The notes beneath the pieces are model-generated. The model saw only the letters and a program-made list of their open reading frames with translations. It was not told where the DNA came from and did not search any database. Below, one piece after another: positions 11,210 to 47,102 of a stretch of DNA of 64,000 bases. The translations under genes were made by a program, and so were the position numbers. Origin of the DNA: an uncultured Bdellovibrionales bacterium (GTDB lineage: Bacteria > Patescibacteriota > Minisyncoccia > Moranbacterales > DUUL01); NCBI GenBank assembly GCA_964346295.1, contig CAYFUG010000004.1, positions 532-64,531 on the forward strand, written 5' to 3'. Within the stretch, counting starts at the first letter, position 1. Every line of letters begins with the position of its first letter.

Positions 11210-11685
11210 ACAGTAGCCCCGTTCGTAACTCTCCTCTCTGCTATTTTTATAGTAGAGCAGCGACGAGTGCGTTCGGGGCCTAGCCAAAGATTTTCGTGTG
11301 GTTCAGGGAAAGGAGTTTGTCGGCAACATTCGACAGCTCCTTCCTTCTAAGCTCGGCAACTGAAAGTTTTCAGCTGGTGGTTTTAGAAGGGAATAATGTT
11401 TCCCTAGAGAGTGTATCTCTAAGATATGCTCTAGTTCTTTGACAAGTCCTATTTATACTAGACTCTAAGCTCTGGAGGTTTGATTCTCAAGCTTTTCCCA
11501 TTCCTTAATTTCCTTAAATTCCTAGCTTTACCATCACTGCCTGAGAGCGCAAATACGAATATCCGTTGAAGTAGCGGAAAGTTGTCTAAAATTTGTGCTT
11601 GCAAGTGGTGATGGTAAAAACCCTGGCCGGAATGTTTCCGGTGGGGGTTGGAAGTAATTTTTGAAAAAAGGAAAAAGGAGAAGTC

Positions 11686-12459: not shown

Positions 12460-12858
12460 AAATAGGACTACTAAAGAATAGGATGGGGCGCGCGTTGGAT
12501 CGTCAACCGCGCCTCCCCTATCATCCGGTGAGACCGGATCTGATGAGGTTTTCTGAATAACATTTCAGAGTCAAAGCCGAAATAGGGATTGTTTCTTTGT
12601 AATGTTTTTAGTGGTAAAAGTTAGCCTTTTGTGGGCTGTAGTGTCAAATTCAAAAACCTCTCTCCTCCTCTATTGGTTATAAATACTAGCTATTTAGTCA
12701 CTAGAGTTGAATTTGATGCTCAGCCCAAAGGAGGCTAAGTAAATAAAAAGTAAAAACATCTCTTATCCAGGGGGTGTTTTTTGATGGAAATTTTGATTAA
12801 TTGGAGTTTTTTGCTAAAATTCAAAAAAGATCTGAGAAATAAAAGGATAAAAAAAATT

Positions 12859-21520: not shown

Positions 21521-23302
21521 ATGAAAGAGCACACTAAAAAATTAGGGGGAAAGTTTTTGGCGATTATTTTGTTAGCAATTTTAGGGACAGTATTAGTGAG
21601 TCCGCGGGAAACCGGGATTGCTGGGATCGACAATTTTACTGACCGCTTCAGCTATAATTTAGGACTGGATTTAGCGGGAGGAGCTCGATTGACTTATCAG
21701 GCTGATATGAGTCAGGTTGATTCTGGTGATCAAGGAGAGGCCTTGAGTGGTTTGCAGGATGTAATTGAGCGGCGAGTAAATGCTTTTGGGGTAGCGGAGC
21801 CAAAGATTCAAACTGTTCAGAGCGGTAACAATTATCGCCTAGTAGTGGAATTGGCTGGCATTAAGGACCTAGGAGAGGCTAAGGAGATGATCAAAGAAAC
21901 GCCCTTTTTGGAGTTTAAGGAGCTAGGAGAGCCTCGAGACGAGAGCGATTTAACCGAGGAGGAAAATCAATTAATCGAGGAACAAATTACTCAAATAGAA
22001 GATTCTAATGAAGAGCAACGAAAAAAGGCTCAGGAAGTACTAGAAAAAGCTCTGCAAGGAGAGGATTTTGCTCAGTTAGCAGAGGAGTATTCAGAAGACA
22101 CTGTGAGCACGGAGCAAGGAGGGGATTTAGATTTTTTTAAGCGAGGGATAATGACAGAGTCTTTCGAAGAGACAATTTTTAGCGAAGAATTAGGAATCGA
22201 TGAGATTCACCCCGAGTTGGTGAAATCTCAATTTGGCTATCATATCATTAAAAAAACTGGGCAGCGAGGAGAGGGGGAAGAAGAGGAAGTAAAAGCTTCT
22301 CACATTCTTTTTAAGACCACGGAATCGGATCAATTGCGGCAAGCTTTTTTGGATCAGTTCTTGCAAGGCAACTTTGAGACTACTGAATTGACCGGAAAAG
22401 ACCTAGAAGGGGCTCAGATGGTGATTCAAAGTCAGCCGGGTCAAATTACTCAGCCGGTGGTACAGCTCCAGTTCAACAGTGAAGGAAGGGAAAAATTCAA
22501 GCAGATTACTGAAAGAAATGTAAGTAAGCCGGTAGCGATTTTTTTGGACGGACAGATTATTAGCTCCCCGGTGGTTAATAGTGTGATTAGAGATGGAAAG
22601 GCGGAGATCAGCGGTAAGTTTTCTGTTAAGGAGGCTAAGGAGTTGGCGCAACGCTTGAATGCGGGAGCCTTGCCGGTACCAATTAACTTAGTTAGTCAAG
22701 AAAGCGTAGAACCTTCTTTGGGGCAGAACGCTCTAGAGAAAAGTTTGCGAGCGGGAGCCTTGGGAATGGCGGCGGTAGCGATCTTTATGATTTTTTACTA
22801 CCGACTAGCGGGGATAGCAGCGGTGCTAGCCTTGGCTTTTTACGCCTTAATGATGGGCAGTATTTTTAAGTTTTCTTCGGTGTCTCAAATTACCGCCATT
22901 ACTTTAACTCTTTCGGGGATTGCTGGATTTATTCTTTCCTTGGGAATGGCGGTGGATGCTAACATTCTCATTTTCGAGCGAATGAGTGAAGAGGTGGCTC
23001 GAGGTCGGGATCTAAAAAAGGCTCTTAAGGAGGCTTATAAGCGAGCTTGGACTTCTATTCGAGACGGTAATGTTTCTACTCTGCTTACTTGTGGAATTTT
23101 AATGGCCTTTGGAAGTAGTTTTATTCAGGGTTTTGCGATTATTCTGGGTCTAGGAGTATTGCTCTCAATGTTTACTGCGATTGTGATTACCCGAGTTTTT
23201 ATGGAGCTACTGTTGCAAATCAGTTTTGTTAATAAGGCTCCGGGCTTGGTGATTGCACCCAAGCGGGTTAGAGGGTATAATAGAAAACGGAAACGCTCTT
23301 AG
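21521..23302 (+). CDS. secD: protein translocase subunit SecD with an embedded PpiC-type (parvulin) domain
   Basis: N-terminal TM segment. Parvulin signature EQGGDLDFFKRG...FGYHIIKK at about aa 170-240. SecD P1-head and TM motifs (GALPVP, ANILIFERMSEE). No SecF gene follows. Confidence 0.75.
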   Translation: MKEHTKKLGGKFLAIILLAILGTVLVSPRETGIAGIDNFTDRFSYNLGLDLAGGARLTYQADMSQVDSGDQGEALSGLQDVIERRVNAFGVAEPKIQTVQSGNNYRLVVELAGIKDLGEAKEMIKETPFLEFKELGEPRDESDLTEEENQLIEEQITQIEDSNEEQRKKAQEVLEKALQGEDFAQLAEEYSEDTVSTEQGGDLDFFKRGIMTESFEETIFSEELGIDEIHPELVKSQFGYHIIKKTGQRGEGEEEEVKASHILFKTTESDQLRQAFLDQFLQGNFETTELTGKDLEGAQMVIQSQPGQITQPVVQLQFNSEGREKFKQITERNVSKPVAIFLDGQIISSPVVNSVIRDGKAEISGKFSVKEAKELAQRLNAGALPVPINLVSQESVEPSLGQNALEKSLRAGALGMAAVAIFMIFYYRLAGIAAVLALAFYALMMGSIFKFSSVSQITAITLTLSGIAGFILSLGMAVDANILIFERMSEEVARGRDLKKALKEAYKRAWTSIRDGNVSTLLTCGILMAFGSSFIQGFAIILGLGVLLSMFTAIVITRVFMELLLQISFVNKAPGLVIAPKRVRGYNRKRKRS

Positions 23303-24118: not shown

Positions 24119-24260
24119 AACGGAGCCTTACTCATTTTGAAAATTTCGTTGTTGAAATCCGGGCTTCCCTTTCACCGTACACTTCAGTACGGCTCAAGCA
24201 AAGCCTACCTGCCTGTCGGCAGGCAGGGATTTCGCCTAGAACTCTCCTAAAATGAGAAAG
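24119..24260 (+). repeat. dispersed repeat family, B-type module
   Basis: ttgaaaatttcgttgttgaa...caccgtacacttcagtacggctc (CCGTAC/GTACGG hairpin) then ...gcctagaactctcctaaaat. Confidence 0.55.
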
Positions 24261-24377: not shown

Positions 24378-24995
24378 TTGAAGCAAGGCTTTTTAGTTAT
24401 TGCTCATAATATCCGCAGTTGCTACAATGTTGGCTCGATTTTTCGTAGTGCGGATGCTTTGGGCGTGGAAAAGATTTATTTAACCGGCTACACTCCCAGA
24501 CCGGGTGTTTTGGTTACTTCCGATGCTGAAAGTGGTCTTGATAAATTAAGCTTTAAGGTAAATTCTCATTCCGATTCAAATTTAAGTCTCGGAGAAAGAA
24601 GAGGCCCCAAAACGAGCTTTACTGAGGCGCTAAAAGCTAAAAAAGATGCCAAAAAGATTGCTAAAACGGCTTTAGGAGCAGAAGAAGTAGTTGCTTGGGA
24701 ATACCAGAGGCAATTAGGACCACTGATTCAAAAATTGCAGTCGCAAGGGGTGCAAGTGGTAGCTCTGGAGCAAGCTTCTAATAGTCTAAAATTAACTGAT
24801 TTTAAGCCCAATTTTCCTTTGGCGCTGCTAGTGGGTAACGAAGTGCGAGGAATCTCTCCTCAAATACTGAAAAAAGTGGACAAAATCGTAGAAATCCCGA
24901 TGCAAGGAAAGAAGGAGTCCTTGAATGTTGGGGTGGCATTTGGAATCGCCGGTTTTTGGCTCCAAGCTGTTGATTTTGGTAAATTTCGTTGTTGA
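24378..24995 (+). CDS. SpoU/TrmH-family RNA 2'-O-methyltransferase
   Basis: LVIAHNIRSCYNVGSIFRSADALGV motif. The C-terminus FGKFRC-stop is supplied by the dispersed repeat. Confidence 0.7.
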   Translation: MKQGFLVIAHNIRSCYNVGSIFRSADALGVEKIYLTGYTPRPGVLVTSDAESGLDKLSFKVNSHSDSNLSLGERRGPKTSFTEALKAKKDAKKIAKTALGAEEVVAWEYQRQLGPLIQKLQSQGVQVVALEQASNSLKLTDFKPNFPLALLVGNEVRGISPQILKKVDKIVEIPMQGKKESLNVGVAFGIAGFWLQAVDFGKFRC

Positions 24996-25185
24996 AGTCT
25001 CCACTTCTCGCTCACCGTAGCTTTATTACGGCTTGCTTCGATGCTCGACTTCGCCTAGAACCTTACTCAAAATCAATAGCTTGGCCTAGACTGTGGCTGC
25101 TTCAGATTAAACTCAAAATATTGTCTAAAATTTCCTCCCGCTTTTGCCAGTGCTACAGATGGGACAGATAAAACTTGAAAAACTT
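24996..25185 (+). repeat. dispersed repeat, near full-length copy (B+A modules)
   Basis: ctcaccgtagctttattacggc...gcctagaacc... then ...gccagtgctacagatgggacagataaaacttgaaa. Confidence 0.55.
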
Positions 25186-25342: not shown

Positions 25343-28009
25343 GTGGAGAGACTTGTTGTCGATAGAAGTGAAGAGAAGAGAAACGGACCGGAAAGAAATC
25401 CGGGGTTTTTTCAGTTAGCTGCTTATCCAAAAGAAGATTGGGATTTGTTAAGGGCTGTGAATAAGGTGTTGTCGAAAGATAGTAGTCGAGTTTATGGTTT
25501 GCAGAGGGCTTTATTGGATTATCCCGAACTAGGGAACGAAGAGACAAAGGAGGTAATTTTAGAAAAGATGGAAGAAGAACTTTTAAGCATTTATTCTGAT
25601 GATTTAAGACTGGAAAATGGAATAAACTCGATAAAAGATGCTTTTGAGGGAATAAGGGGGATTTATTTAGGGAAAATAGAGACAGAGAAGGTTGTGATCG
25701 AGCGAGTCAACCAGCTTTACCCAGCGGAGTTGGAAGCCTTTGAGGATTTATTGGGCGACTTTATAGTTTATAAAAAAGTTTTACCTAAAGATGTTATTCA
25801 GGCAATTTACAGAAATAGGCTAGAGAAAATTGGAAATGTAAATCTTAATAATCTTTTTAGTTATGGAGATGTAGGCTTAGAAAAAGAGTGTTTAGGGGTT
25901 AATGAAAGAATTTTTGAAGCTCTAGAGGAGCTAGCCTTGTTTTCTGATATTTCCGAAGGTCAGAAAGCGGAACTTTTTCAGTCAGTGGCAAGGGGGTTAT
26001 TTGGAAGGGAAAAAAAGTTTTTTGTAGACCCAGAAAAGGCTTTGAGATTTGTAAGAGTCACTTTTCAAAGTCCAGAGACCAAGCGCTATGCCAAGCCACT
26101 TTTCATGAATTATTGGTGGGAGTGGGAGAATGCTATTGAAAAAATGCAGTCAGAAATTGATTTTGAAGATCAGAGCAAGGAGAATATTAGGAAAATAGCA
26201 GAGTTGGCGGAAATTTACGGGGCAGTTTACGGAGAATTGATAAAGAGGGGAATCGAACCTAATAATGATGGGGCAGTTTACATGTTGAATTTTATTAACC
26301 AGGCGGGAGGAGTAGACGATTTTTACCTTAACTTAAAGGTTAAGCAAGCCGTTTTTCTTATTCAGGCTGATGCTTGCCTTTATTATGAGGAAGGCGAGGA
26401 TTGGCAAAAGGAAGGAAGGGCGCAGTTGATTTATAGTGCGGCTCAAACTTTGGGAACTGATCTGCAGCTTAGTGGCGAGGAGCTGCAGCAATTTTTAACT
26501 GATATAAAAGGTTTTTTTGGGCAAAAATTAACTGCCGAAATTGAACCTCTTGTTAAGGGGCAGGTGGCAGCTCCGGGAGTAGAAGGGCATTTTGATGATG
26601 ATTTTGATCTGGTGCTACTGGAGGAGGAGAGAGGCAATGAAGGTGATAGGCTGAAGTTTAGCGAATTTATTAAGTTGAATTACTACGATGTTATTGAAGA
26701 GGGCGATTTTCTGGATTTGATGTTTATGCAAAATTTATTCATCAAGAAGCGAATTTCCCAGGAGTTAGGCGTGGCTTTGCATAACTTAGAGTTGAGAGCT
26801 CAGAATCAGTTTTTAAACTTCATTAAAAATGCCTCCCAGGAGAGAGTGAGACAAGTGGCAGAATTCGTAAAAAATCCAGCAGAAGAAGAGCAGCGCTTAA
26901 ACCGCCTGAGAGTCTTTCTTTCCTTGGAAGAGGGCCATTTTTCAGGAGATCAGCTATTGGACTTGCCTTCCAGGATTGATGCTGACCAAGCGCAGCAAGT
27001 TTTTGACCAGTATGGGAGACTGGTTCAAGACGCTTTTTCGGAGCAGTCGACCCTTCAAGAAGTGCTAAAGAATCCGGAGGATTTGGCCAAAATTGATCAA
27101 GAAAAAATCACTCAAAATTTGCTCTTCCGAGGCCAAAAAATCCTTCAAAGGCTAATTGAGTCTAGCGAGCCAGAGAGAGAGGCAGAAAGTGTTTTATCCA
27201 GCCTTTTAGCACAAAAATGGCAAATTCAACTAGCGGGAGCAGTTTTTAGGGAAGGGATCGAGGCTGGGATGAGTTTAGATGATTTAGAGGGTGGCAGAAT
27301 TGAGGTTTTAACCGTCCAAGACTTAATTCAAAAACCAGAATTGGTGGCTAAAATGAGGGATATTTATTCTAATAATTTCTCCAAAAAACCTGATTTGCAA
27401 GGAGCGGTTTTGCAAGGATTTGATCAAAAAATGACAGAAGGAGGCGTTAATTCGGAGTTTGCTTTGGCCTTTGTGGGCGAAGAATTGGTGGCTTTTAGCC
27501 GCAGTGATCATGTAGACGAAAAAACTCGCTATTTTGCTTCTCTAAACTCTTCTTATGGCGGTGCCAAGTTTGGAGAAGCTCTGAGGAGGAAAAGAGAGGC
27601 TCAGGTGGGAGAAAATTTTGATATTCGGGCTCATAGTGAGCCAGAAAGTGCCATGAGTACGCTGTATATTGGCCCAGAGGGAGGATTTATAGCCGATGGG
27701 GTAGAATTTAATTATCACAACACCGAGGCTAATTTATTCAGTATTACTAGACAAAAAACCCCGCCCAGTTACTATGCTTGGAGTAAGCCTCGAGAAGAGC
27801 TAGTCAAAGAGGCGAAAGAACTTGCGGATAGTGAGATAAGTAGCATTTCTCTAGAAAAGGGTAAGCCTCTGGTTTTAAGCCTCCAGGGGCTAGAAAATAC
27901 ACTAGTGGCACTAAAAACCCTACTCAATGAGCAGGGCGGCCAGTTGACCAATTATTGGTTTCAGGGCGGAAGATATTTTTTAGCTATAGAAAACCCTAAA
28001 TCAAGCTAA
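25343..28009 (+). CDS. large hypothetical protein (888 aa; start uncertain)
   Basis: Long uninterrupted ORF with no recognisable motifs. Starts with GTG at 25343; the alternative ATG near 25567 follows an AAGGAGG. Confidence 0.5.
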   Translation: MERLVVDRSEEKRNGPERNPGFFQLAAYPKEDWDLLRAVNKVLSKDSSRVYGLQRALLDYPELGNEETKEVILEKMEEELLSIYSDDLRLENGINSIKDAFEGIRGIYLGKIETEKVVIERVNQLYPAELEAFEDLLGDFIVYKKVLPKDVIQAIYRNRLEKIGNVNLNNLFSYGDVGLEKECLGVNERIFEALEELALFSDISEGQKAELFQSVARGLFGREKKFFVDPEKALRFVRVTFQSPETKRYAKPLFMNYWWEWENAIEKMQSEIDFEDQSKENIRKIAELAEIYGAVYGELIKRGIEPNNDGAVYMLNFINQAGGVDDFYLNLKVKQAVFLIQADACLYYEEGEDWQKEGRAQLIYSAAQTLGTDLQLSGEELQQFLTDIKGFFGQKLTAEIEPLVKGQVAAPGVEGHFDDDFDLVLLEEERGNEGDRLKFSEFIKLNYYDVIEEGDFLDLMFMQNLFIKKRISQELGVALHNLELRAQNQFLNFIKNASQERVRQVAEFVKNPAEEEQRLNRLRVFLSLEEGHFSGDQLLDLPSRIDADQAQQVFDQYGRLVQDAFSEQSTLQEVLKNPEDLAKIDQEKITQNLLFRGQKILQRLIESSEPEREAESVLSSLLAQKWQIQLAGAVFREGIEAGMSLDDLEGGRIEVLTVQDLIQKPELVAKMRDIYSNNFSKKPDLQGAVLQGFDQKMTEGGVNSEFALAFVGEELVAFSRSDHVDEKTRYFASLNSSYGGAKFGEALRRKREAQVGENFDIRAHSEPESAMSTLYIGPEGGFIADGVEFNYHNTEANLFSITRQKTPPSYYAWSKPREELVKEAKELADSEISSISLEKGKPLVLSLQGLENTLVALKTLLNEQGGQLTNYWFQGGRYFLAIENPKSS

Positions 28010-28762
28010 TTTTCGGGAATAATCCCAGTGAAATTCGAACAGGGATTTGTGCATTTGGTAAATATTGGGATCTTGGATTAGCATAGCGATTTTGTGTTCT
28101 TCTGAAAGGGAGATGTAAATGACTTTTCCTTCGTAAATTTGCATTACAGAACCCGAGAAGGGGTATTTTTCTTGATCAATAAGCTTAATTTCTGTAATAT
28201 CTCGCAGATAATTTTGCAAGTAATTTTTGGCAAAGGCAGAGTCCAGGACCAGAACCTTTTTGTTAAGGTTAAGCTTGGATCTTTTTTTCATGTAGCACTG
28301 ATTGATTTTTTCGGTGTATTTGATAACAGCCTCCAGGTCGGCATAAGTGTAAATAATTTCTTGACTGGTGAGAGTGTCTTCCAGGGCCTCTTGAATGCCT
28401 TCTAGTCCCTCAAAATAGCGGACGTCAGGTTTCTGAGAAACTAAATTAAATTCTGATGTCAGTGCATCTAGATTGGCCGCTAGGTTTTTATGAGTTTTTT
28501 CTAGTTGGGAAGATTGATCGCGGAGTAATTCTTCTAATTGATTAGGGTGTTGAGGATAAAAATGAGTCAATTTTCCCTTTTTTTTGCTAATTACCAGGCT
28601 TTTTTCTTCTAAAGATTCTAAAACATTGTAAACCACCCCCTTTTGGAGGGTGGTTTTTTTAATGATTTCGCTGGCAGGAACTGCTCCAGAGCGAAGCAGG
28701 AATTCGTAAATAGTGGCTTCATTAGGGGTCAGTCCAACTTGAGTAAGGATGTCTTGGTACAT
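28001..28762 (-). CDS. TrmB-family HTH transcriptional regulator, divergent from GC island 2
   Basis: N-terminus ILTQVGLTPNEATIYEFLLRSGAVPASEI is typical of the TrmB HTH. Paralogous to 39074..39868 and 58052..58837. Confidence 0.7.
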   Translation of the reverse strand: MYQDILTQVGLTPNEATIYEFLLRSGAVPASEIIKKTTLQKGVVYNVLESLEEKSLVISKKKGKLTHFYPQHPNQLEELLRDQSSQLEKTHKNLAANLDALTSEFNLVSQKPDVRYFEGLEGIQEALEDTLTSQEIIYTYADLEAVIKYTEKINQCYMKKRSKLNLNKKVLVLDSAFAKNYLQNYLRDITEIKLIDQEKYPFSGSVMQIYEGKVIYISLSEEHKIAMLIQDPNIYQMHKSLFEFHWDYSRKLA

Positions 28763-28877: not shown

Positions 28878-28906
28878 TTGACAATTTTTTAATAATATGC
28901 TACAAT
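28878..28906 (+). promoter_or_regulatory. sigma70-type promoter of GC island 2
   Basis: TTGACA, 17 nt, TGcTACAAT. Embedded in the TTGACAA...TTGTCAA palindrome. AT-rich UP-like region upstream. Followed by GTCAAGCTAAGAAAAGG. Confidence 0.65.
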
Positions 28907-29108
28907 GCCTTGTCAAGCTAAGAAAAGGGTAAAACTCCGAAGCTTGAAGAACTGAAAGGTTCTAGCCAAATAAGAATAGTTGGCTCTTAGTACATTATAT
29001 CGAGAATAACCACACAACACAAACCACAGGAAAGTTTCTTGCAAGGCTTTTCTAGAGGTGTTTTTTGTGTTGTGGAAACATTCTCTAGCAAGAGCCCTGC
29101 AAAAAACT

Positions 29109-29154
29109 CTCCTATCACGGGGAGTTTTTTGTTCTTTGAAAACTCAGAAATCAG
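29109..29154 (+). promoter_or_regulatory. boxB-like hairpin plus boxA-like antiterminator
   Basis: CTCTCCtatcacGGGGAG hairpin, then gttctttgaaaactcagaaatcag. Confidence 0.55.
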
Positions 29155-29335
29155 TAAAGTGGTTTTCTCCTAGGGCTTTTGTCCTTGGTAGGCAGCTTAG
29201 TGCTTATGAAAGTTTGTAAGCGCTGAGCTGTTTATCAAGCAAGGAAAGCCCGGGCGTCCTAGTCACCGGGAAATTTTACAAAAAAATTATCCGGGCTGTA
29301 CTAGGCAGCCCATTTTTCAGAAAAGGAGAAAGACC

Positions 29336-29785: not shown

Positions 29786-30072
29786 CGGCCGTTTTTCTGT
29801 CCCCCTTCAATTTGCTTTTGGCATTTAGGAGGGGGCAGCGCTGATTTCTGAGTAAGAGGGTTCAAGGAAGGCGGATTCACATTGTGCGTCCGCCTCCTTT
29901 TCTCAAATCTCAAGTTTAATTGAGGTTTGAGATGAAGGATTGCACCTTGAAAAATTTTCCCTATTTCTCCTTTCAATTGCCTTTTTTCACTTAGTGAAAA
30001 CAAATCCAACTTCGTTGATTGAAGTGAGGCAATTGACGATTTTCAACTGAAAAAAGGGAGAGGAGAAGGGGC

Positions 30073-30526: not shown

Positions 30527-31306
30527 ATGAAACGGATTTTTGTTGTCCCTATCAACGATGGGGAGGCGGTAGAGATTAGGAATCTCCTACAGGATGGCGG
30601 TGAAGTGGTTGTGGAAAGCGTCCTCCGTTGGGGAGCCCGATGGGAGAAGCTGGAACCGGAGGTGGTGGCGGAGATCGAAAGGCTTCGCTCCCTTAATCCG
30701 GGAGTTCAGATCTACGGCGTGGAGCTGGCCGGCCCCAATCAGTGGGGGGCTCGCAACATCGACCACCACAAGTACCAGGATGAGGATCGGAGTAATTCCA
30801 AGTCCTCCCTGGAGCAAGTGGCGGAGTTGTTGGGCGTCCAGCTGACCCGGCACCAATTTTTGGTTTCGGAGAATGACAAGGGTTGGATCCCGGCGCTAAT
30901 AGCGGCCGGAGCCAGTCCCGACGAGATCGAACTGGTGCGGGCGCAGGATCGCCAGGCCCAGGGGGTTACCCCTGACGACGAAGCCCAGGCTCTTCGGGAT
31001 ATCGAGGCGGCCCAGTGGCAAGGTCGGAAGGTCTGGCTCCAGTGTCTCAAGGGGGCCACCTCGGCCCACACTGACCGGCTCTTTGGTCAGTTTGACGAAG
31101 CCCTGACGGTGGATGGGGTCAACGGAAAGTGGATCTATTTTGGTCCGCGATCCGAAGATTTCTTCGCCCTCACCGAAGGGGGCACCGAAGGGATACGCTG
31201 GAAAAGCCCTCGACCAGGGGGGTACTCCGGGGCGGAAAAGCCCCAGGAGGAGACCCAGGAAGCAATCCGGAATTTTTTTGGGAGTAATTCCCTTACCTCT
31301 TTTTAG
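30527..31306 (+). CDS. hypothetical protein, GC island 2 gene 3 (259 aa)
   Basis: RBS TAAGGAGGAG then ATG at 30527. The longer track ORF from 30119 has an R/P/W-rich N-terminal extension that overlaps gene 2 in another frame and is judged spurious. Confidence 0.55.
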   Translation: MKRIFVVPINDGEAVEIRNLLQDGGEVVVESVLRWGARWEKLEPEVVAEIERLRSLNPGVQIYGVELAGPNQWGARNIDHHKYQDEDRSNSKSSLEQVAELLGVQLTRHQFLVSENDKGWIPALIAAGASPDEIELVRAQDRQAQGVTPDDEAQALRDIEAAQWQGRKVWLQCLKGATSAHTDRLFGQFDEALTVDGVNGKWIYFGPRSEDFFALTEGGTEGIRWKSPRPGGYSGAEKPQEETQEAIRNFFGSNSLTSF

Positions 31307-32003: not shown

Positions 32004-32104
32004 TTCTGTCTACTTTCGATTTTCGTTCATTTCCAATGGATCAGGTGTCATTGTGCATCTGATCCGGAATTCTGAGCTTAGCTCTATTAAGAGGTAGGTT
32101 CAGC

Positions 32105-32128
32105 GTTCTTTAAAAACTCAGAAATCAG
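32105..32128 (+). promoter_or_regulatory. second boxA-like motif, internal to the island 2 operon
   Basis: gttctttaaaaactcagaaatcag lies between gene 4 and gene 5, as a spacer boxA does in rrn operons. Confidence 0.5.
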
Positions 32129-32269
32129 GAAAATCCAACTTTCTATCTTTTCTCTTTGTCTTCTAAAAGTTGTTGGTTACCCGAGAGAATTTAATCTAGT
32201 TAATGAACTGAATTAGCCAGTTAAGTTTTTTTGGGCAACCAACAACCAAGGAAAGAGAAGGAGGAAGAC

Positions 32270-32518: not shown

Positions 32519-32704
32519 CCCTTACCTTAGAATTTTTTTGATTTCTAGGCCCTCTCCATCAGGCCTCCTGCGAAGTTAGCAGGTTTTAAAAATTTGGATG
32601 GTAGTCCGAGCGGCGGAAATGACTCAAAACTATCCGCAAAATTAGCCCTGACAATCAGGGCCGGCCGAGGCAAGCGCAATGCCGCTTTAGCCTAAGAGGC
32701 CACC

Positions 32705-32836
32705 AAAAGGCCCGAAAGAGTCTGGCCAACGCGCTAAATCTTTCGGAGGGACGAACTTGTTGAACACAACATTTTCGTCCCCTCTACTAGCAACTTAATT
32801 TGAGACTTGATCTTTTATTGAGTTGCTTGAGAGAAT
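32705..32836 (+). repeat. 132-bp direct repeat, copy 1
   Basis: Near-identical (2-3 mismatches) to 34004..34136. Contains a GGGACGAA-cttgttgaacacaacatt-TTCGTCCC hairpin. Confidence 0.85.
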
Positions 32837-32924
32837 CTATTTTGAAAGGCGAGTTCTTTGAAATATATCCAAAGCTTCATTGTAATCTTTGGGTACTTCA
32901 ACCAAACCAGAAAAGGGGGATGCC

Positions 32925-33971
32925 ATGGGTAAATTTCAGGAAATCACACTGGAATTATTGTTGGAAAATGAAGTTTTGAGGAAGTATCTTCTCAAGGCAA
33001 GAATTGGTCCAGCTAAAAAAGGCGACGGTGCTTTTGTGGGGACTTATGATATTGCCCCGAAGGAGTTTCGGAGTTTTGGAATTGTTTTGCCCAGGGGCGG
33101 GATGATTATTCCAGGGGCAGATCCTGTCAAGTTAAAGGAAATGGTCAAGGAGCCTGAGCGCCGGCGTGAGGCGGAGGACTTGGCAAATCGTCGTGCTGTT
33201 GAAAAAGATTATCTCAATCAGGTGAAAGAGATAATTGCTGAAGCTGGCCTCACGGATATTGAAGTGGTGGAAGAAGACGGAGTGGACTTCCATAGTATCG
33301 GCGCCACCAGCTGGCACAAGAGCTTTTTGGTAAGAGAAGGAGAGAAAATCTTCAGTCTTCACAGCGAAGAGGAGCCGTATCGTGGCTTAGATGACGATGG
33401 TTCGTACGAGCCGTGGAGGACGGAGTTTACTCCGTTGGAAGAGGTGAAATCCTTCCTTGAAGAGGAGGCGCGTCTTGTTGGTCCGAGAAAAATGTTTGCT
33501 GATCGGATCAGGCGGCTTATTGATATAAGCCACAATGTTGGTCAGCAAGGGCCAGATGAAACTGGCTGGGATCGCCCTCGAGTGGAATTATTTTTGTACG
33601 ATGACTATAAAAAAGGCAGGGACTGGGGTTTTTTCGGTCATCGTTGTCAGGGTATCTCTTCGGCCCACAGGATTTACTATCGAAAAAAACTCTATGAGAT
33701 TACCGAAGAAGGCATTTCTCGCCTTGAGTATGAAATCGGAGAAAGGGAGGAGGCGCTAGAAGCAAGACGAGCGATGCTCAAAAGACTCTTCGAAGAGAAG
33801 GGCAGAGTTTTTGAGGAACTCAAAGAAGAGAAAGATTGCTATGCCGGAAAGTCACTGGCAACCGGCAAGGCAAAGTACGATGAGTGGACTGAAACGCGCT
33901 ACTTTCTCGGCGACACAGAAGTTACCGAGGAAGAGCGTGATTGGCTGAAGGGCTTACCTAAGGATAATTAG
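32925..33971 (+). CDS. hypothetical protein (348 aa) bracketed by the 132-bp direct repeats
   Basis: RBS AAAAGGGGGA then ATG at 32925. Charged soluble protein with no recognisable motifs. Confidence 0.55.
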   Translation: MGKFQEITLELLLENEVLRKYLLKARIGPAKKGDGAFVGTYDIAPKEFRSFGIVLPRGGMIIPGADPVKLKEMVKEPERRREAEDLANRRAVEKDYLNQVKEIIAEAGLTDIEVVEEDGVDFHSIGATSWHKSFLVREGEKIFSLHSEEEPYRGLDDDGSYEPWRTEFTPLEEVKSFLEEEARLVGPRKMFADRIRRLIDISHNVGQQGPDETGWDRPRVELFLYDDYKKGRDWGFFGHRCQGISSAHRIYYRKKLYEITEEGISRLEYEIGEREEALEARRAMLKRLFEEKGRVFEELKEEKDCYAGKSLATGKAKYDEWTETRYFLGDTEVTEEERDWLKGLPKDN

Positions 33972-34003
33972 TGGATAAGGCCCTCAAGACTCTTCAAATT
34001 TTC

Positions 34004-34136
34004 AAAAGGCCCGAAAGAGCCTGGCCAACGCGCCAAATCTTTCGGAGGGACGAACTTGTTGAACACAACATTTTCGTCCCCTCTACTAGCAACTTAATTT
34101 GAGACTTGATCTTTTATTGAGTTGCTTGAGAGAATT
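34004..34136 (+). repeat. 132-bp direct repeat, copy 2
   Basis: See copy 1. Confidence 0.85.
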
Positions 34137-34169
34137 TTGATAGATCTTAGGAAAGTTAATAGATACAGC

Positions 34170-34205
34170 AAAAAAGCGCCGGTATTAGTCCCGGCGCTTT
34201 TTTAT
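34170..34205. terminator. bidirectional rho-independent terminator
   Basis: AAAAAA-GCGCCGG-tattagtc-CCGGCGC-TTTTTT. Confidence 0.75.
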
Positions 34206-34317
34206 TCTACTGCTTTTAGCTATTCAATTCCCCTAATCCCTCCTCCTTTGCTAAAGCTATGGTCGGCAGGCTTTTGTAAGGGGGTTGCTGAGCAGGGAAA
34301 GGCTAAGATCTCTTGAC

Positions 34318-34372
34318 TTCCTCCTTCGTCAAAACTTCGGAGGACAAGACGCTCGGGATGACAAAGAAAAAA
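34318..34372. repeat. dispersed repeat, A-type module copy
   Basis: tccttcgtcaaaacttcggaggacaagacgctcgggatgacaaag. Confidence 0.5.
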
Positions 34373-38586: not shown

Positions 38587-39073
38587 AATGGTTTAAAAAA
38601 GGATTTAAGTTACTTGACAATCAATTGAGAAAAAGATAACTTCTAACTTAATTGCTTTTTATTGAGTCCGCTAAGGCAGCGTAACATTTTTTAGGGAATA
38701 AATCTACCCCCTGAGTAAGGAGGACTGGACTTTCTTGGAAAATGTTGTTAATATTGTAGACATAATTTGTCAGACTTCCTTAGGAGGGTAAATTAATTCC
38801 TGTTTAATTTCTTTAATATGCCTTAAATAAGGGTAAATTTAAAAAAGAAATTTTAATTAGGAAATTGATTAAGAGTTTTAATTTTATGTTAATGATCTTA
38901 ATTTAATTTCTCAAAATTTAATTTCTCATCTCAAAAGGGATTAGTTTATTTTTCTGGAAAATCTGAAATTTAATCTACGACTTGAACTCTGCTTGCTGGC
39001 TAGACTTGCAAAATTTAGAGAAGCAGTTTATAATAAAGTTAGAAATGCAGGAGGGTCAAGTTTTAAAAGAGTT

Positions 39074-39868
39074 ATGATGTTAGATGAAGAATTGATTAAA
39101 CTGGGCCTTTCCGAGAAAGAGGCAAAAGTTTACTTGGGGGCAATTCAATTAGGAGCCTCCACTGTCCAAAAAATTTCTCAGAAGTCTCAAGTTAACCGGG
39201 CGACTACTTATGTGATTATCGAGAGTTTAATGCGAATGGGCTTGATGTCTACTTTCGAGGAAGGTAGAAAAACTTTCTATGTTGCAGAGAAGCCTCGTCG
39301 TTTGGTAGAGTTCTATAAAAATAAGAAGACTCGCCTGGATGAGAAGATTGAAAGGTTAAGCGAGATCGTGCCGGAGTTGAATTCTCTTTATAACGATCAT
39401 TCCGACCGACCCAGAGTGAAGTATTATGAGGGCAGTGAGGGTTTATTAGCGATTTATGATGATTTCGAAAGTACTTTATCAGGGGGGCAAGAGATATTAA
39501 TATTTACTCCCATTGATGATTTCAAGAAAATCAAGAAGCCTCAGATGAGTCAAAGGATTGAGAAGTTTAGAGACAAGAGATTGAAAAAAGGAGTGAGAGC
39601 CAGGACTATATATAGCTCTGCGAGCGGAAGGGACGAAATATTTGAAGAAAGTATTAGAAAATTAGGTGAAGAGATCCTATTTTTAGAAAAAGATAAGAGT
39701 GGTCTCAATGGTTTAGACGCGGGTTTAAATGTTTATGGTAATAAGGTTTTCCTTTTTAGTTACCAAGGCAAGAGAGGCGGAGTTTTGATAGAGAGTCAAA
39801 GCGTGGCCAATCTTTTAGGAGGTATATTTGAAATAGTTTGGTCTCATTTGAAATCTTTAAAAAAGTGA
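39074..39868 (+). CDS. TrmB-family HTH transcriptional regulator
   Basis: LIKLGLSEKEAKVYLGAIQLGASTVQKISQ HTH. Start set at MMLDEE (39074). Confidence 0.65.
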   Translation: MMLDEELIKLGLSEKEAKVYLGAIQLGASTVQKISQKSQVNRATTYVIIESLMRMGLMSTFEEGRKTFYVAEKPRRLVEFYKNKKTRLDEKIERLSEIVPELNSLYNDHSDRPRVKYYEGSEGLLAIYDDFESTLSGGQEILIFTPIDDFKKIKKPQMSQRIEKFRDKRLKKGVRARTIYSSASGRDEIFEESIRKLGEEILFLEKDKSGLNGLDAGLNVYGNKVFLFSYQGKRGGVLIESQSVANLLGGIFEIVWSHLKSLKK

Positions 39869-40024: not shown

Positions 40025-40882
40025 TTGATTTTTATGCATAATCAAGCGAGAGCAATGCAGGATTTTGAAATGCTAAGAGCACTTCAAGTAATTCAGCTCG
40101 ACTTAGGACCAAATCACTTGGTTGATTTGGGTTTTGTTCGAATTGTAATTTGCCCTTATGCGGATAATGAATTTTGGAACTTTGCAGTTTTTCAGGACGA
40201 AATCACATCATCTCAACTGAGGGAATTGGAGCAAAAATTTCAACAATTAGAAGAAGAGGCAGATAAGGACTTTGCTATTTGTGCTTCGGATAATCAGACT
40301 CAGGTTCTAAGACTAGTGAAGAAGACTGGCTACAAGAATATTCTGCACCGGTCGTTTTTTGTTAAAGACCTGGATGGATTTCAGGAAAGGACGCTTGATA
40401 GCCCTTTCGATAGTTTCAGTGAGAAGCTCCGTTTTGAAAAAGTTCAATCTGATCAGGGCTGGGAGGATTTTGTAAAAGTCTTTGATGAAGCTTTTAGGGA
40501 GGAAAATTCTGCCTCTCTTCATCCGGGGCCGATATATCTGGAGGTAATGGAAGAGGTCTGGCGTAAAGATCAGTCCAAGGGAGGCAAGATTGTTAATCAT
40601 CTCGTTTTGTACCAAGAGGGTGAGCCAGTGGCGGTAGCTTCTAATTTTAATTCTTTGCAGCATCGGATGAGTTATATCTCTAATGTAGGAGTGCATCCTA
40701 GGTTCAGAAAAAAGGGATTGGGAGGTCGGATAGTCAATTTTTGTCTGGCCGATTCTCAAGAATTTGGCAATGAGCAGGCAACCTTAGTAACAGAAAACAA
40801 CGCCGGCTTGAGAAGTTTCTATCGAGGATTGGGATTCCAGAATTTATTTGACTTTAGCTATTATGCCAAAAAATCCAATTAA
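40025..40882 (+). CDS. GNAT-family N-acetyltransferase
   Basis: C-terminal VGVHPRFRKKGLGGRIVNFCL acetyl-CoA binding motif. Confidence 0.65.
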   Translation: MIFMHNQARAMQDFEMLRALQVIQLDLGPNHLVDLGFVRIVICPYADNEFWNFAVFQDEITSSQLRELEQKFQQLEEEADKDFAICASDNQTQVLRLVKKTGYKNILHRSFFVKDLDGFQERTLDSPFDSFSEKLRFEKVQSDQGWEDFVKVFDEAFREENSASLHPGPIYLEVMEEVWRKDQSKGGKIVNHLVLYQEGEPVAVASNFNSLQHRMSYISNVGVHPRFRKKGLGGRIVNFCLADSQEFGNEQATLVTENNAGLRSFYRGLGFQNLFDFSYYAKKSN

Positions 40883-42125
40883 AAAGCCTAAGATATTGGT
40901 GGCGCTGAGCGGAGGGGTAGACTCGGCGGTGGCGGCCCTGCTTCTTCTGGAGCAGGGTTTTGAGGTGCAAGGGATTCATTTTTTGCTGAGTAGCGAGAAA
41001 TTGATTAGCGCAGAAAAAGTTCGGTTGATTGCTAATGAATTGGGGGTCGAGCTAGAAGTAAGAGATATTTCTCGGGAGTTTCAAAAAGAGGTGGTGGATA
41101 GTTTTGCTAAAACTTATCAAAAAGGAGCGACGCCTAACCCTTGCGTGATTTGCAACCGGAAGGTAAAATTTAAGCAGTTACTCCAGGCTCGCGAGGAGCT
41201 AGGCTGTGATCTAGTAGCCACCGGACATTACGCACGGATTGCTGCTGGTGAGGGCTCCCTGAAGGCGATCTCCACTCAATCCTCTCAATCTCTCCATCTT
41301 CGCCAGGACTACAGTCGACAGGCTCTACAAAAGGGGGAGACTGAGGGTTTTTTTCTTCAAAAGGCCAAGGATCAGCGCAAGGATCAGTCCTATTTTCTCT
41401 ATCGATTAACCCAGGAGCAGTTGCAATTTTGTCGCTTTCCCTTGGGGGAGCACTTCAAAGATTGGGTCAAGCAGCGGGCTAAAGATTTAAATTTAGGCCT
41501 AGAAAGGCAAGGAGAGTCCCAAGACATTTGTTTTTTTGAGCCAGAGGAAAGCCTGCGAGATTTTCTTGGAAGGCGCTCTAAACAAAACTTTACAGAAGCT
41601 TCAATAATTTCGGACAAAGGTGAGCCTTTGGGGAAATGCGAGGGTTTGGAGTTGTTCACGATTGGCCAGCGCAAGGGCCTAAATCTCAGTGGGGGGCCTT
41701 GGTATGTTTTGAATAGAGATTTCACCAAGCGGCAGCTGGTAGTCACTCGCGATTCGGAAAGCCCGGATTTTTGGCAAAAGGGAATTTTTATCGAGCAAGT
41801 CAACTGGATTAATCAATCTCCTCAGCCGGGAAAATGGTACGACTTGCAAATTCGTTATCAAGGAAAAGTTTATCAAGGGATGCTTGAGAAATTAAAAGAG
41901 GGGCTTCGAGGGCAGGGCGGGGGATATTCCGTCCCCACTCCTACGGGGGTTGCTCAATCCCCCCAGCCCCTCCTCCTTCGCCAGGACTACAGTCGACAGG
42001 CTTTACGAAAGGGGGAGCCTAGCTGGAAGGTTAGCTTGAAGGAGGCGGCCCGGGCGGTAGCAGCGGGGCAATCGTTGGTGGTGTATGAGGGTAGTCAAGT
42101 TTTAGGGGGAGGAATCATCTTCTAG
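40848..42125 (+). CDS. mnmA: tRNA-specific 2-thiouridylase MnmA with two in-frame repeat-derived insertions
   Basis: PP-loop LVALSGGVDSAVAA, NPCVICN, GHYARIA...KDQSYFLYRL, C-terminal SLVVYEGSQVLGGGIIF. About 60 extra residues arrive in two blocks that share the peptide LRQDYSRQAL. Confidence 0.85.
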   Translation: MTLAIMPKNPIKKPKILVALSGGVDSAVAALLLLEQGFEVQGIHFLLSSEKLISAEKVRLIANELGVELEVRDISREFQKEVVDSFAKTYQKGATPNPCVICNRKVKFKQLLQAREELGCDLVATGHYARIAAGEGSLKAISTQSSQSLHLRQDYSRQALQKGETEGFFLQKAKDQRKDQSYFLYRLTQEQLQFCRFPLGEHFKDWVKQRAKDLNLGLERQGESQDICFFEPEESLRDFLGRRSKQNFTEASIISDKGEPLGKCEGLELFTIGQRKGLNLSGGPWYVLNRDFTKRQLVVTRDSESPDFWQKGIFIEQVNWINQSPQPGKWYDLQIRYQGKVYQGMLEKLKEGLRGQGGGYSVPTPTGVAQSPQPLLLRQDYSRQALRKGEPSWKVSLKEAARAVAAGQSLVVYEGSQVLGGGIIF

Positions 42126-42261: not shown

Positions 42262-42330
42262 ATAAGATCCCTCGACTCCCTCCTTCGCCAAGGCTACGGC
42301 GGGCAAGGCGCTCGGGATGACAAACTAAGA
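42262..42330. repeat. dispersed repeat, A-type module copy
   Basis: ctccctccttcgccaaggctacggcgggcaaggcgctcgggatgacaaa. Confidence 0.55.
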
Positions 42331-42370
42331 ATTTTAGAAGCTATACTTTATTGGCAATACCAATTTTTTT

Positions 42371-43021: not shown

Positions 43022-44218
43022 TTGACTTCAAAGAAAAAAAAACAGACCAGTTTTTTAGGGGACAAGAAGGTGGCTTTAGTCCACGATTTTTTGTTATACT
43101 GGGGGGGAGCGGAGGCCACTTTGCAAGTGTTGGCCAAAATGTTTCCTCAGGCGCCGATTTACACCCTGCTTCAGGATGAGCAGTTTACCAAAAAGCACTT
43201 CAGGGGGCGAGAAATCCGGACCTCGTTTTTACAGAAAATTCCCCGCTGGATCCGCAAAAAACACACTCGCTTATTGCCGCTAATGCCAACCGCCATTGAG
43301 TCGCTCAATTTGCGGGATTATGACTTGGTAATTTCCTCCTCTTCGGCTTTTGCCAAGGGAATTGTGGTGAAGCCTAAGACCACCCATGTTTGCTACATGC
43401 ACGCCCCTATGCGTTATGTCTGGGACTACTATCACCAGTATTTTCAAGAGCGCTTTGGCAATCGAGCTAAAATTTTTACCCGGACTTTTCTCAACTACTT
43501 GCGAACTTGGGATCGAGCCAGTGCCGACCGGGCTGATCATCTGGTTGCCAATTCTCGTTACACTGCTCGGCGAATCGAAAAATATTATCGTAGAGAATCC
43601 ATGGTGATTTATCCCCCAGTGGAGGTGGAAAAATTCGCCCTCAGTCCGGACAAGGCAAATTCCAGTATTTCTTCTAGCTCTGATTTGATAGAGAAGCAAA
43701 ATCAGGCCAGGAGAGGTAGCTATTTTTTGACAACGGGGCGCTTAGCGACTTATAAGCGGGTAGATCTTTTGATTGAGGCTTTTCAGAAGCTCAAGTTGCC
43801 GCTAGTGATAGTGGGTGATGGCCCGGAGCGTAAAAAGCTAGAGAAATTAGCCCAAGGGAACAGCAAGATAAAAATTTTAGGCTGGCAAAGTGAGGAAAAA
43901 TTAATTCGACTTTATCAAAATTCCCGGGCCTTTGTTTGTGCCACCGAAGATGATTTCAATATCACTTGCGTGGAGGCAATGGCAGCCGGAACGCCGGTAA
44001 TTGCCTTAAAAAAGGGCGGCGTGCAGGAAACAGTAATCGAAGGTCAGACGGGAATATTTTTCCAGGAGGCACGGTTGGAGCTAGTGGTGGATGGAGTGCG
44101 GCGGTTTATTGAAAAAGAGGCTGATTTTGACTCGGAGGTGATTCAGGCTCGAGCGAGGGAGTTTTCGAGGGAGAGATTTGAGAAGGAGATGCGAAAGTAC
44201 TTGACTTCCATTTTTTGA
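43022..44218 (+). CDS. glycosyltransferase family 4 (RfaG-like)
   Basis: EAMAAGTPVIALKKGGVQETVIEGQTGIFF GT4 signature. Confidence 0.8.
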   Translation: MTSKKKKQTSFLGDKKVALVHDFLLYWGGAEATLQVLAKMFPQAPIYTLLQDEQFTKKHFRGREIRTSFLQKIPRWIRKKHTRLLPLMPTAIESLNLRDYDLVISSSSAFAKGIVVKPKTTHVCYMHAPMRYVWDYYHQYFQERFGNRAKIFTRTFLNYLRTWDRASADRADHLVANSRYTARRIEKYYRRESMVIYPPVEVEKFALSPDKANSSISSSSDLIEKQNQARRGSYFLTTGRLATYKRVDLLIEAFQKLKLPLVIVGDGPERKKLEKLAQGNSKIKILGWQSEEKLIRLYQNSRAFVCATEDDFNITCVEAMAAGTPVIALKKGGVQETVIEGQTGIFFQEARLELVVDGVRRFIEKEADFDSEVIQARAREFSRERFEKEMRKYLTSIF

Positions 44219-44325
44219 AAATTTTGGTGTCAAAATCTCCGCTACTCCCTCACCGTAACTCTCAGTACGCCTCGCTCGCTGCTCGATTTCTCCTAAAAAT
44301 TTCCTAAAAAATGAAAGTCCTTAAA
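44219..44325 (+). repeat. dispersed repeat, B-type module
   Basis: ttttgaaaattttggtgtcaaaatctcc...ctcaccgtaactctcagtacgcctcgctcg...tcctaaaaatttcctaaaaaatg. Confidence 0.55.
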
Positions 44326-47017: not shown

Positions 47018-47100
47018 TGATAAAATTTCCAGGAAAAACAATCAGTGGAGTGATATAAATTCCTTGATTTTTTATCAGTGGAGTGATAAAATTTCCAGGT
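47018..47100 (+). repeat. interleaved short direct repeats upstream of the ATPase gene
   Basis: tgataaaatttccagg occurs twice (47018, 47084). atcagtggagtgata occurs twice (47041, 47074). Confidence 0.7.
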
Positions 47101-47102
47101 AA

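Follow-up and report, generated by a model that had tools for sequence, protein, structure and literature searches.

Why would a signal that belongs in front of ribosomal RNA (rRNA) genes recur in front of genes for proteins? The question is raised by a 64-kb stretch of contig CAYFUG010000004.1 (64,000 nucleotides (nt), analysed here as a whole and called the window), in which a boxA-like motif with the core GTTCTTTRA occurs six times over three loci, at 9960 and 11434, at 29131, 32105 and 32853, and at 59262 (Table 1). The answer that we favour, and regard as moderately probable, is that these protein-gene transcription units are built like rRNA operons; rRNA-operon-type signals around GC-rich, partly foreign genes suggest a previously undescribed mode of expression. 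A first-pass annotation of the same DNA had reported four of the motifs at their exact coordinates, overlooking those at 11434 and 32853, and had proposed that rrn elements were co-opted to drive protein cargo. The identity of the boxA and a leader-trailer geometry support part of that proposal; its antitermination part we infer.

All six copies are located on the forward strand, in gene-free leaders within the non-coding 18% of the window, a placement with a chance probability of ~6e-7, and the exact 9-mer is observed 6 times vs 2.7 expected on both strands. A loose 13-mer with up to two mismatches is not enriched in the window (15 found vs 8.6 expected), the surplus matches being inside open reading frames (ORFs) or members of other repeat families, and the signal therefore resides in the exact core and its placement. 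Copies 29131, 32105 and 59262 constitute a repeat family sharing 24-28 nt at 89-93% identity, and conservation continues past the T-run, with GAAAA common to all six copies and CTYAGAAATCAG to three of them; the element is further spelled GUUCUUUGAAAA, GUUCUUUGAAAAC and 5'-GUUCUUUGAAAACUCAG-3'. At the RNA level every copy reads G-U-U-C-U-U-U-R-A-N-A, which fits the consensus GYUCUUUAANA apart from G at position 9. This G is found in five copies, and the 32105 copy fits exactly the boxA search pattern GYTCTTTAANA used in gamma-proteobacteria (PMC5725501). The boxA of Aquifex has G at position 9 too, and the critical boxA bases G2, C5 and U6 are kept in the window motif (PMC3177189).

The same element is found where boxA is expected. 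A pattern scan covering other bacteria, not the window's organism, showed that at least 120 metagenome contigs have the 12-mer GTTCTTTRAAAA 100-130 nt before the start of 16S; among the matches listed, the GC content of the organisms ranges from 0.34 to 0.67 and the motif mostly reads GTTCTTTGAAAACT..., often directly after a short hairpin. The window motif thus matches a true rrn-leader boxA and, judged by its letters, is the same as a genuine rrn-leader element of many bacteria. The likeness to rrn boxA suggested in the first-pass annotation is supported by the consensus, the critical bases and the identical 12-mer ahead of real 16S genes.

Lineage-specific proteins of the window have homologues in Uhrbacteria, Parcubacteria, Saccharibacteria, Peribacteria, Doudnabacteria and other Patescibacteria metagenome-assembled genomes (MAGs), and the organism is therefore most likely a bacterium of the Candidate Phyla Radiation (CPR). 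On searching 258 kb of non-redundant loci of other CPR genomes (related loci carry L-numbers below), the strict 12-mer gave seven matches (two each in L007, L025 and L042, one in L015), all of them between called genes, in the same orientation as the neighbouring homologue of the window cargo. The sequence around the motif is lineage-specific in these genomes, and such a conserved core in lineage-specific flanks fits a site read by a conserved trans-acting factor. L025 has its own duplicated hairpin-boxA (CGYTCTTTGAAAACT)-hairpin module at 2100-2230 and 4000-4130, with flanks unrelated to those of the window, the cargo homologue being preceded by one module at ~800 nt and followed closely by the other. 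Exact-pattern scans of genome-contig and metagenome-contig collections with 23-24-mers gave no match, and a search of the literature on boxA in Patescibacteria yielded nothing but unrelated BOX-PCR papers.

The analogy with rRNA operons proved to be wider than had been noted earlier, since leader-trailer helices bracket the ORFs with a 16S-like geometry. In four to five of the six units, the strand that begins within boxA or directly behind it can pair with a trailer situated at the stop codon of the following ORF or immediately 3' of it. The trailer of the 29131 unit holds CTGATTTCTGAG, the exact complement of 29143-29154 (a perfect 12-mer) and the sole forward-strand copy in the window. Four of the six helices are present in unconstrained minimum free energy (MFE) folds of whole units of 0.8-1.5 kb. 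In five of the six units the helix is 5.6-10.8 kcal/mol stabler on sense than on antisense RNA owing to its 2-9 G.U pairs, and this sense-strand advantage argues for RNA-level over DNA-level function; the helix of leader strand 9976-10004, which also contains a CU-rich tract complementary to the Shine-Dalgarno (SD) sequence, is better on forward-strand RNA with four G.U pairs. Units without boxA in the same operon (ORF146 with ORF259; ORF181) showed no such pairing.

As a positive control, 19 real rRNA operons were analysed in which boxA is the same and the 16S gene is complete, and the equivalent pairing was found to bracket 16S in 16 of them. In these 16 operons the leader strand starts at boxA +5 to +13 (+5 in 14) and the trailer 0-87 nt after the 16S 3' end, with helices of -30 to -63 kcal/mol, better than any segment inside 16S. 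In the published rrn layout, boxB, boxA and boxC are accompanied by a leader-trailer helix that RNase III cleaves, and the spacer holds another antitermination site (PMC10250234). A candidate for an additional, outer helix in the window joins the transcript 5' end with 11337-11358, 32061-32083 and 60594-60619 (-16.5, -13.6 and -21.8 kcal/mol, respectively), with 12 of 13 positions complementary between 59153-59176 and 60594-60619; its trailer side is part of a 3' module common to loci 2 and 3.

The three loci share one design, which begins with near-perfect predicted promoters (TTGACA, a 17-nt spacer and the extended -10 element TGnTAnAAT), putatively very strong and of the sigma-70 type, with predicted transcription starts. 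Promoters 9128, 28878 and 59120 are followed by a conserved initial transcribed sequence, GTCAAGCT(A/C)AGAAAAGG, and the promoter at 9046 by a divergent GTCCAGCTGAAATGGGG. The transcript start GUCAAGCUAAGAAAAGG (9161-9177, 28913-28929, 59155-59171) bears what we take to be a likeness to the 5' terminus of bacterial 23S rRNA (GGUUAAGUUAGAAAGGG). A divergent TrmB-family regulator gene stands beside two of the three loci, and such genes adjoin homologous cargo in L007, L009 and L043. A further TrmB-family gene occurs at 38993-39868, and in several CPR genomes such regulator genes recur beside the cargo loci, mostly in divergent orientation.

The untranslated leaders, 160 to >1000 nt in length, are strongly structured, with fold z-scores of -9.4 (29131 leader), -5.7 (59262) and -5.5 (9960). 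boxA is fully unpaired in one of these three leader folds (9960), and in the two others its 3' half belongs to a short local hairpin with the extension; the 29131 copy is outside any long helix, positions 5-9 pairing with 14-18 in a 5-bp local hairpin. When whole units are folded, boxA is partly paired with trailer or upstream sequence in the MFE structures, the 29131 copy being largely trailer-paired. About 30 nt after boxA, a CU-rich anti-SD tract pairs with the SD in four of the six units, enclosing a long hairpin; in locus 2 this tract is UUUUCUCC and the SD is paired to 29164-29171. SD-like sequences are found in two trailers. Release of the SD by such a trailer, displacing the anti-SD tract, was considered as a possibility; the MFE folds keep the anti-SD tract on the true SD. 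A perfect extended SD-like AAGGAGGTGAT is present at 60538-60548, at the junction of the trailer with the csx30 segment described below, with no ORF after it. The ~780-nt leader 9163-9940 before boxA 9960 contains four of the window's eight GGAGAGAG motifs, and the long leaders in L007 (9000-10000) and L043 (3150-4185) contain three GGAGAGA copies each; leader repeats of this type may be protein-binding or ribosome-binding.

That the motif regions lack rRNA, as had been stated earlier, was confirmed: the window has no rRNA or tRNA, and Rfam finds only RNase P RNA (55953-56363). The possibility that the GC-rich blocks conceal an rRNA or another known RNA was rejected, as Rfam at gathering and permissive thresholds returned the RNase P RNA and noise only (sub-threshold rimP, Phe_leader and miRNA families). 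The cargo ORFs, which have conserved homologues, encode real proteins. Directly behind the motif at four sites, the ORFs have GC of 0.55-0.62 and GC at third codon positions (GC3) of 0.63-0.76, vs a background of ~0.42 and ~0.40; cargo GC3 overall is 0.59-0.76. The earlier description of the genes as GC-rich holds for these four sites and applies more weakly to the other two (GC 0.48-0.49). The cargo genes are compositionally foreign or atypical, and Pfam gives no significant match to any cargo protein. A prophage source for the cargo was discarded for want of meaningful PHROG matches.

Three of the cargo proteins can nevertheless be placed, two of them as DHH-type phosphodiesterase-like proteins. 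The 326-amino acid (aa) protein has a predicted fold with a predicted local distance difference test (pLDDT) score of 95.5, which is confidently DHH/DHHA1 and resembles PggH, NrnA, GdpP and RecJ. Its family is conserved CPR-wide, with orthologues in L007, L009, L011, L014, L016, L017, L025, L028, L032, L034 and L038, and in 11 of 11 CPR genomes checked the orthologue is 5-19 GC points above its flanks, with GC3 up to 0.85; repeated transfer or selection could account for this excess. The 259-aa protein (30527-31306) matches the PADLOC model DHH_CorA (E = 3e-31), which represents a CorA-associated DHH hydrolase linked to type III CRISPR, and also PADLOC C3a116. In a Bryobacterales MAG, a 46%-identical homologue (L044 445-1206) directly adjoins a Cas10/RAMP type III effector locus. 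Between the 259-aa protein and the 326-aa protein no sequence similarity is detectable, and the idea that they are paralogues was rejected.

At least one cargo member, the csx30 segment of locus 3, is indeed of foreign origin. The 377-aa protein matches NCBIfam NF041234 (Csx30) with 154.5 bits against a cut-off of 125 (E = 4e-45, profile positions 2-347 of 560), and PDB 8EEY (Csx30) with E = 3e-7. Nucleotides 59434-60537 are 92% identical (88% at the aa level) to the 5' two-thirds of a type III-E csx30 on a contig of 56% GC from a sister sample; the ORF that comes after this csx30, at least 1429 aa long, is read as a gRAMP effector without a family-library scan. A second csx30 homologue (83% aa and 86% nucleotide identity) belongs to a locus with a CHAT protease gene. 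Among the csx30 homologue loci, L039 has a flanking ORF of at least 922 aa plus a CHAT protease gene, L040 a flanking ORF of at least 1429 aa, and L041 is a further locus. The nucleotide homology ends at 60537, and the first codons of the 377-aa ORF, with its start, and its last 17 nt, with its stop, are local and not derived from the foreign segment; trailer 60531-60575 begins at the 3' edge of that segment. The protein is shorter than its closest homologues (572-576 aa) and does not have the Craspase cleavage region and C-terminal domain of full-length Csx30. By homology it is a recently captured Csx30 N-terminal domain, resembling the type III-E Craspase substrate in scoring above the NCBIfam cut-off and differing from it in having the N-terminal domain only (377 vs ~575 aa) (PMC11106740; bioRxiv 10.1101/2022.08.17.504292). 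The Csx30 N-terminal domain is a toxic RpoE-binding fragment, normally freed by Craspase cleavage (same sources). No cas genes or CRISPR array are present in the 64-kb window, and the Csx30 domain stands alone.

Table 1. Features of the three boxA-bearing loci (window coordinates; helices are given as leader strand / trailer strand)
Feature	Position	Strand	Remarks
boxA-like copy	9960-9977	+	GTTCTTTGAAAATCTTAG; core 9960-9971 = GTTCTTTGAAAA; 269 nt 5' of ATG
boxA-like copy	11434-11445	+	GTTCTTTGACAA
boxA-like copy	29131-29154	+	GTTCTTTGAAAACTCAGAAATCAG; core GTTCTTTGAAAA, extension CTCAGAAATCAG
boxA-like copy	32105-32128	+	GTTCTTTAAAAACTCAGAAATCAG; core GTTCTTTAAAAA (32105-32116) plus extension
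boxA-like copy	32853-32864	+	GTTCTTTGAAAT; 36 nt 5' of ORF 32889-33971 as listed, 72 nt 5' of internal ATG 32925
boxA-like copy	59262-59285	+	GTTCTTTGAAAACTTAGAAATCAG; core GTTCTTTGAAAA, extension CTTAGAAATCAG
Helix	29141-29178 / 29819-29854	+	-40.9 kcal/mol; 0/296 control segments as good; 26 pairs in MFE fold
Helix	11444-11483 / 12411-12470	+	-35.0 kcal/mol; 0/296 controls as good; 46 pairs in MFE fold; trailer overlaps stop codon
Helix	59267-59308 / 60531-60575	+	-25.9 kcal/mol; 4/297 controls as good; leader strand from boxA +5, as in real rrn leaders
Helix	32858-32900 / 33917-33988	+	-26.9 kcal/mol; 7/296 controls as good
Helix	9976-10004 / 11178-11218	+	-24.6 kcal/mol; 15/296 controls as good; 18 pairs in MFE fold; trailer overlaps stop codon
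Weak candidate helix	32116-32146 / 32527-32550	+	-15.8 kcal/mol; not significant
Predicted promoter P1, locus 1	9046-9074	+	TTGACA, 17-nt spacer, TGnTATTAT; 11/12 consensus positions plus TG extension
Predicted promoter P2, locus 1	9128-9156	+	82 nt after P1; tandem pair
Predicted promoter, locus 2	28878-28906	+	TTGACA, 17-nt spacer, TGCTACAAT
Predicted promoter, locus 3	59120-59148	+	consensus, extended -10
Conserved transcript 5' segment, candidate outer leader strand	9161-9180	+	GUCAAGCUAAGAAAAGG; pairs with 11337-11358
Conserved transcript 5' segment, candidate outer leader strand	28911-28931	+	repeat family and pairing
Transcript 5' segment, outer leader strand	59153-59176	+	GUCAAGCUCAGAA; pairs with 60594-60619
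Candidate outer trailer	11337-11358	+	complementary to transcript 5' end
3' module, locus 2	32032-32083	+	GGATCAG...CTGATCC hairpin followed by GGAATTCTGAGCTT, a candidate outer trailer; second copy at 60570-60619
Outer trailer, locus 3	60594-60619	+	complementary to transcript 5' end
Hairpin at boxB position	9941-9958	+	before boxA 9960
Hairpin	11408-11432	+	before boxA 11434
Terminator-like hairpin	29104-29130	+	A6 tract, stem, T6 tract, directly before boxA 29131
Hairpin	32072-32103	+	before boxA 32105
Hairpin	59241-59258	+	before boxA 59262
Long imperfect leader hairpin	10008-10118	+	9960 leader
Two long leader hairpins	29173-29311	+	29131 leader
Long leader hairpin	59311-59407	+	59262 leader; enclosed by anti-SD/SD pairing
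Cargo ORF, 326 aa	10229-11209	+	DHH/DHHA1-fold phosphodiesterase-like; GC 0.60, GC3 0.75
Cargo ORF, 257 aa	11686-12459	+	no family match; GC 0.49
Cargo ORF, 149 aa	29336-29785	+	no family match; GC 0.62, GC3 0.76
Three cargo ORFs, 146, 259 and 181 aa	30073-32003	+	GC 0.52-0.59
Cargo ORF, 82 aa	32270-32518	+	GC 0.55; SD paired to 32150-32162
ORF, 360 aa	32889-33971	+	unit behind boxA 32853
Cargo ORF, 377 aa	59421-60554	+	Csx30 N-terminal domain (by homology)
Bidirectional intrinsic terminator	34166-34200	.	closes locus 2
TrmB-family regulator gene	28001-28762	-	divergent to locus 2; paralogue 58052-58837, 36% identical
TrmB-family regulator gene	58052-58837	-	divergent to locus 3

In an arrangement modelled on rRNA operons, a strong promoter would fire, probably under TrmB control, and boxA would load NusB/NusE (S10) plus NusA and NusG onto RNA polymerase, rendering it processive and Rho-resistant. 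The polymerase could then cross the long, ribosome-free, structured leader and the ORF with its initially masked SD without Rho-dependent termination; such resistance would be needed because the leader is untranslated and the SD masked, so that the early transcript is ribosome-free. The boxA-tethered complex may help the distant leader and trailer strands to meet, and the resulting helix would provide a putative RNase III-type processing and end-protection site. Its formation or cleavage would disconnect or occlude boxA, which would explain why boxA is repeated before successive units (9960 then 11434; 29131 then 32105 then 32853), each having its own as in the 16S-23S spacer.

Comparison with known systems helps to define what is shared. 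With the rRNA operon leader (boxB-boxA-boxC, the 16S helix and the rrn transcription antitermination complex, rrnTAC) the window units have in common strong promoters (a tandem pair at one of the loci), a hairpin and behind it a boxA whose 12-mer is found in many real 16S leaders, a leader strand that begins within or immediately behind boxA (from +5), a trailer close behind the product, and the renewal of boxA for every successive product as in the 16S-23S spacer (PMC10250234). In contrast to that leader, however, what is bracketed is a protein ORF with an SD of its own, helix stability is lower on average (-16 to -41 vs -30 to -63 kcal/mol), no boxC is identifiable in the window units, and anti-SD/SD pairing is added. 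Outside rRNA, boxA is known in the suhB 5' untranslated region (UTR), in the leaders of CRISPR arrays and at a ParE-like toxin gene (Baniulyte 2017, Stringer 2020; PMC5725501, PMC7665894). These cases similarly place boxA in a non-rRNA leader with a proposed control of Rho-dependent termination on untranslated RNA, but theirs is a single boxA with no bracket, whereas the window has six copies at three loci in an rrn-like layout in a CPR-like bacterium. The icaR gene of S. aureus and the hbs gene of B. subtilis also show long-range pairing between leader and 3' region, involving SD accessibility and RNase action (PMC3868564, PMC5737220); unlike the window units they are single genes without boxA, and the icaR 3' UTR pairs with the SD itself. 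As boxA on non-rRNA targets and 5'/3'-UTR pairing are both already known, the units do not form a new category. Processive antitermination, along with double-stranded RNase III sites which cut a polycistronic transcript into stable units, is familiar from phage lambda nut sites and T7 early mRNAs, the nut sites having boxA followed by boxB. The window, however, has no phage N protein or phage context (no PHROG matches), its order is hairpin then boxA as in rrn operons, and its helices are long-range brackets, not local hairpins.

Several observations weigh against an rRNA-operon-like organization. Binding of Nus factors, antitermination, cleavage by RNase III and the sequence of steps are, like the promoters and transcription starts, predictions from sequence. 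Leader-trailer pairing is not significant at unit 32105, nor in the nearest relatives L007a, L042a, L042b and L025b, with only L007b showing pairing. Cross-species covariation therefore lends the pairing no support, and the same-strain contigs (L002, L004-L006) are 99.9-100% identical and hence give no covariation signal. Distant cargo homologues (e.g. L009, L011) are without the motif. No rRNA genes were found in 44 related loci (383 kb), nor was the organism's own rrn leader, and the window ends encode MurL and PBP2, not rRNA. The csx30 region and its junctions rest on a single assembly. Finally, the hairpin at 29104-29130 is a canonical intrinsic terminator upstream of boxA, at a place where the Nus complex cannot yet help.

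Amongst the alternatives, the one that survives best, though we consider it unlikely, is that the motif and the structured leader form a post-transcriptional element which works without Nus factors, either as a site for another RNA-binding protein or RNase or as a 5'/3'-UTR switch for translation or decay, as in icaR and hbs. The pairing of the SD with the leader anti-SD tract in four of the six units and the SD-like sequences of two trailers would be accommodated, and precedents exist both in the 5'/3'-UTR pairing with RNase III of bacterial mRNAs (PMC3868564, PMC5737220) and in the suhB boxA, which itself represses translation (PMC5725501); the exact identity of the core to rrn boxA is nevertheless left unexplained, as is its conservation across distant CPR lineages while the flanks differ. 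Nus-independent and Nus-dependent mechanisms are not mutually exclusive.

It is rather improbable that the inverted repeats flanking the ORFs act in DNA, as boundaries or recombination sites of mobile cassettes which insert foreign genes behind resident promoters, with the RNA helices as a by-product. One cargo is indeed a foreign fragment of 1.1 kb, whose 3' edge is exactly where the trailer starts; however, the left arm lies ~150 nt upstream of that fragment, with a hairpin and the SD in between. Mobility is also hinted at by direct repeats of 133 nt, 98% identical (32704-32836 and 34003-34135), which flank the unit of boxA 32853 and the 360-aa ORF and suggest a recent duplication or insertion, by the 3' module common to two cargo blocks, by a Y1 (IS200/IS605-type) transposase gene directly downstream of the 326-aa orthologue in L007 (11222-11716), and by cargo GC above that of the host genome in eleven CPR genomes. 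None of the annotated ORFs of the window was recognized as an integrase or transposase gene, although not all ORFs were scanned against family libraries. The helices moreover contain G.U pairs and are weaker on the opposite strand in five of the six units, and their geometry matches rRNA leader-trailer helices in detail.

The hairpins before the motif bear on a third alternative. A short hairpin ends 1-5 nt 5' of the motif at five of the six sites, with weak structure only at 32853; it thus precedes all four of the sites noted earlier and not three, and the label boxB does not suit 29104-29130, whose structure is terminator-like in the canonical sense and not a neutral boxB. Least likely of all is that hairpin and T-rich motif are ordinary intrinsic terminators or attenuators between transcription units with an incidental likeness to boxA, for even though a consensus scan marks 9941-9958, 11408-11432 and 29109-29124 as terminator-like with the motif supplying the T-run, the structure at 29104-29130, which has a T6 tract of its own, is a textbook terminator and three sites are downstream of a preceding ORF, the conserved part reaches beyond the T-run, the hairpin-motif gap varies from 1 to 13 nt across the window, L007 and L025 when terminators need a U-tract abutting the stem, the stems are mostly short or GC-poor, the same sequence also follows a hairpin in real 16S leaders, and the downstream ORFs, having no promoter-like site between themselves and the motifs, would be silenced by termination there. 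Each of the three alternatives explains part of the evidence, but not the exact boxA identity and the rrn-like geometry together.

With regard to its setting, the window is a segment of a bacterial chromosome (GyrA, IspG, SecD, MnmA, MreD, PBP2, RNase P RNA), and identical sequence is found in Joint Genome Institute (JGI) contig Ga0153774_1000134 (reverse strand), in an ENA microbial-mat assembly and in Logan assemblies. Further repeats are present outside the cargo loci. An intergenic family with the pattern TTTTGAAAATTT...CACCGTA...CAGTACGGCTC...CCTAAAA occurs after several forward-strand genes, at 24122-24260, 24975-25079, 44200-44317 and 49634-49752 (also 23471 and 55868). Two more families, with the patterns TAAGATC...GGACAAG.CGCTCGGGATGACA and CTCAATCC...GTCGACAGGCT, are found at 6079-6147, 34304-34372 and 42263-42331, and also at 34223, 41275 and 41953, at 62-85% identity to reference copies; the copies 41275-41342 and 41953-42020 are inside the MnmA ORF 40848-42125, and the remaining ones between ORFs of the list. 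At 47018-47128 a 33-nt unit (TGATAAAATTTCC...CAGTGGAGTGATA) occurs three times in tandem, immediately upstream of ORF 47103-48377 and overlapping its start. SecD (21521-23302) has an inserted PpiC-type peptidyl-prolyl isomerase domain (Rotamase_3, residues 158-248).

Control by boxA outside rRNA has so far been limited to a handful of targets (suhB, CRISPR arrays), always with a lone boxA, whereas here the whole layout of an rRNA operon is apparently reused for protein genes, with its promoters, hairpin-boxA, a bracket per product and a boxA per unit. A more speculative extension, to which we give little credence, is that the rrn machinery, with its Nus-loading boxA, its leader-trailer processing helix and a boxA that reloads the factors at each unit, serves as a general cassette for captured genes and that the cargo is a counter-defence or signalling toolkit against type III CRISPR of neighbour or host cells, with the Csx30 domain as a decoy or anti-sigma-like effector and the DHH phosphodiesterases degrading nucleotide second messengers. 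If the rRNA-operon-like organization is true, the chaperone or looping function of the rrn antitermination complex would be applicable to mRNAs, and there would be a link between the expression platform and pieces of type III CRISPR accessory genes that were transferred recently. The design of insulated, Rho-resistant expression cassettes could also draw on the architecture, which, again if the reading is true, would offer a concrete, testable handle on gene expression in uncultivated CPR bacteria.

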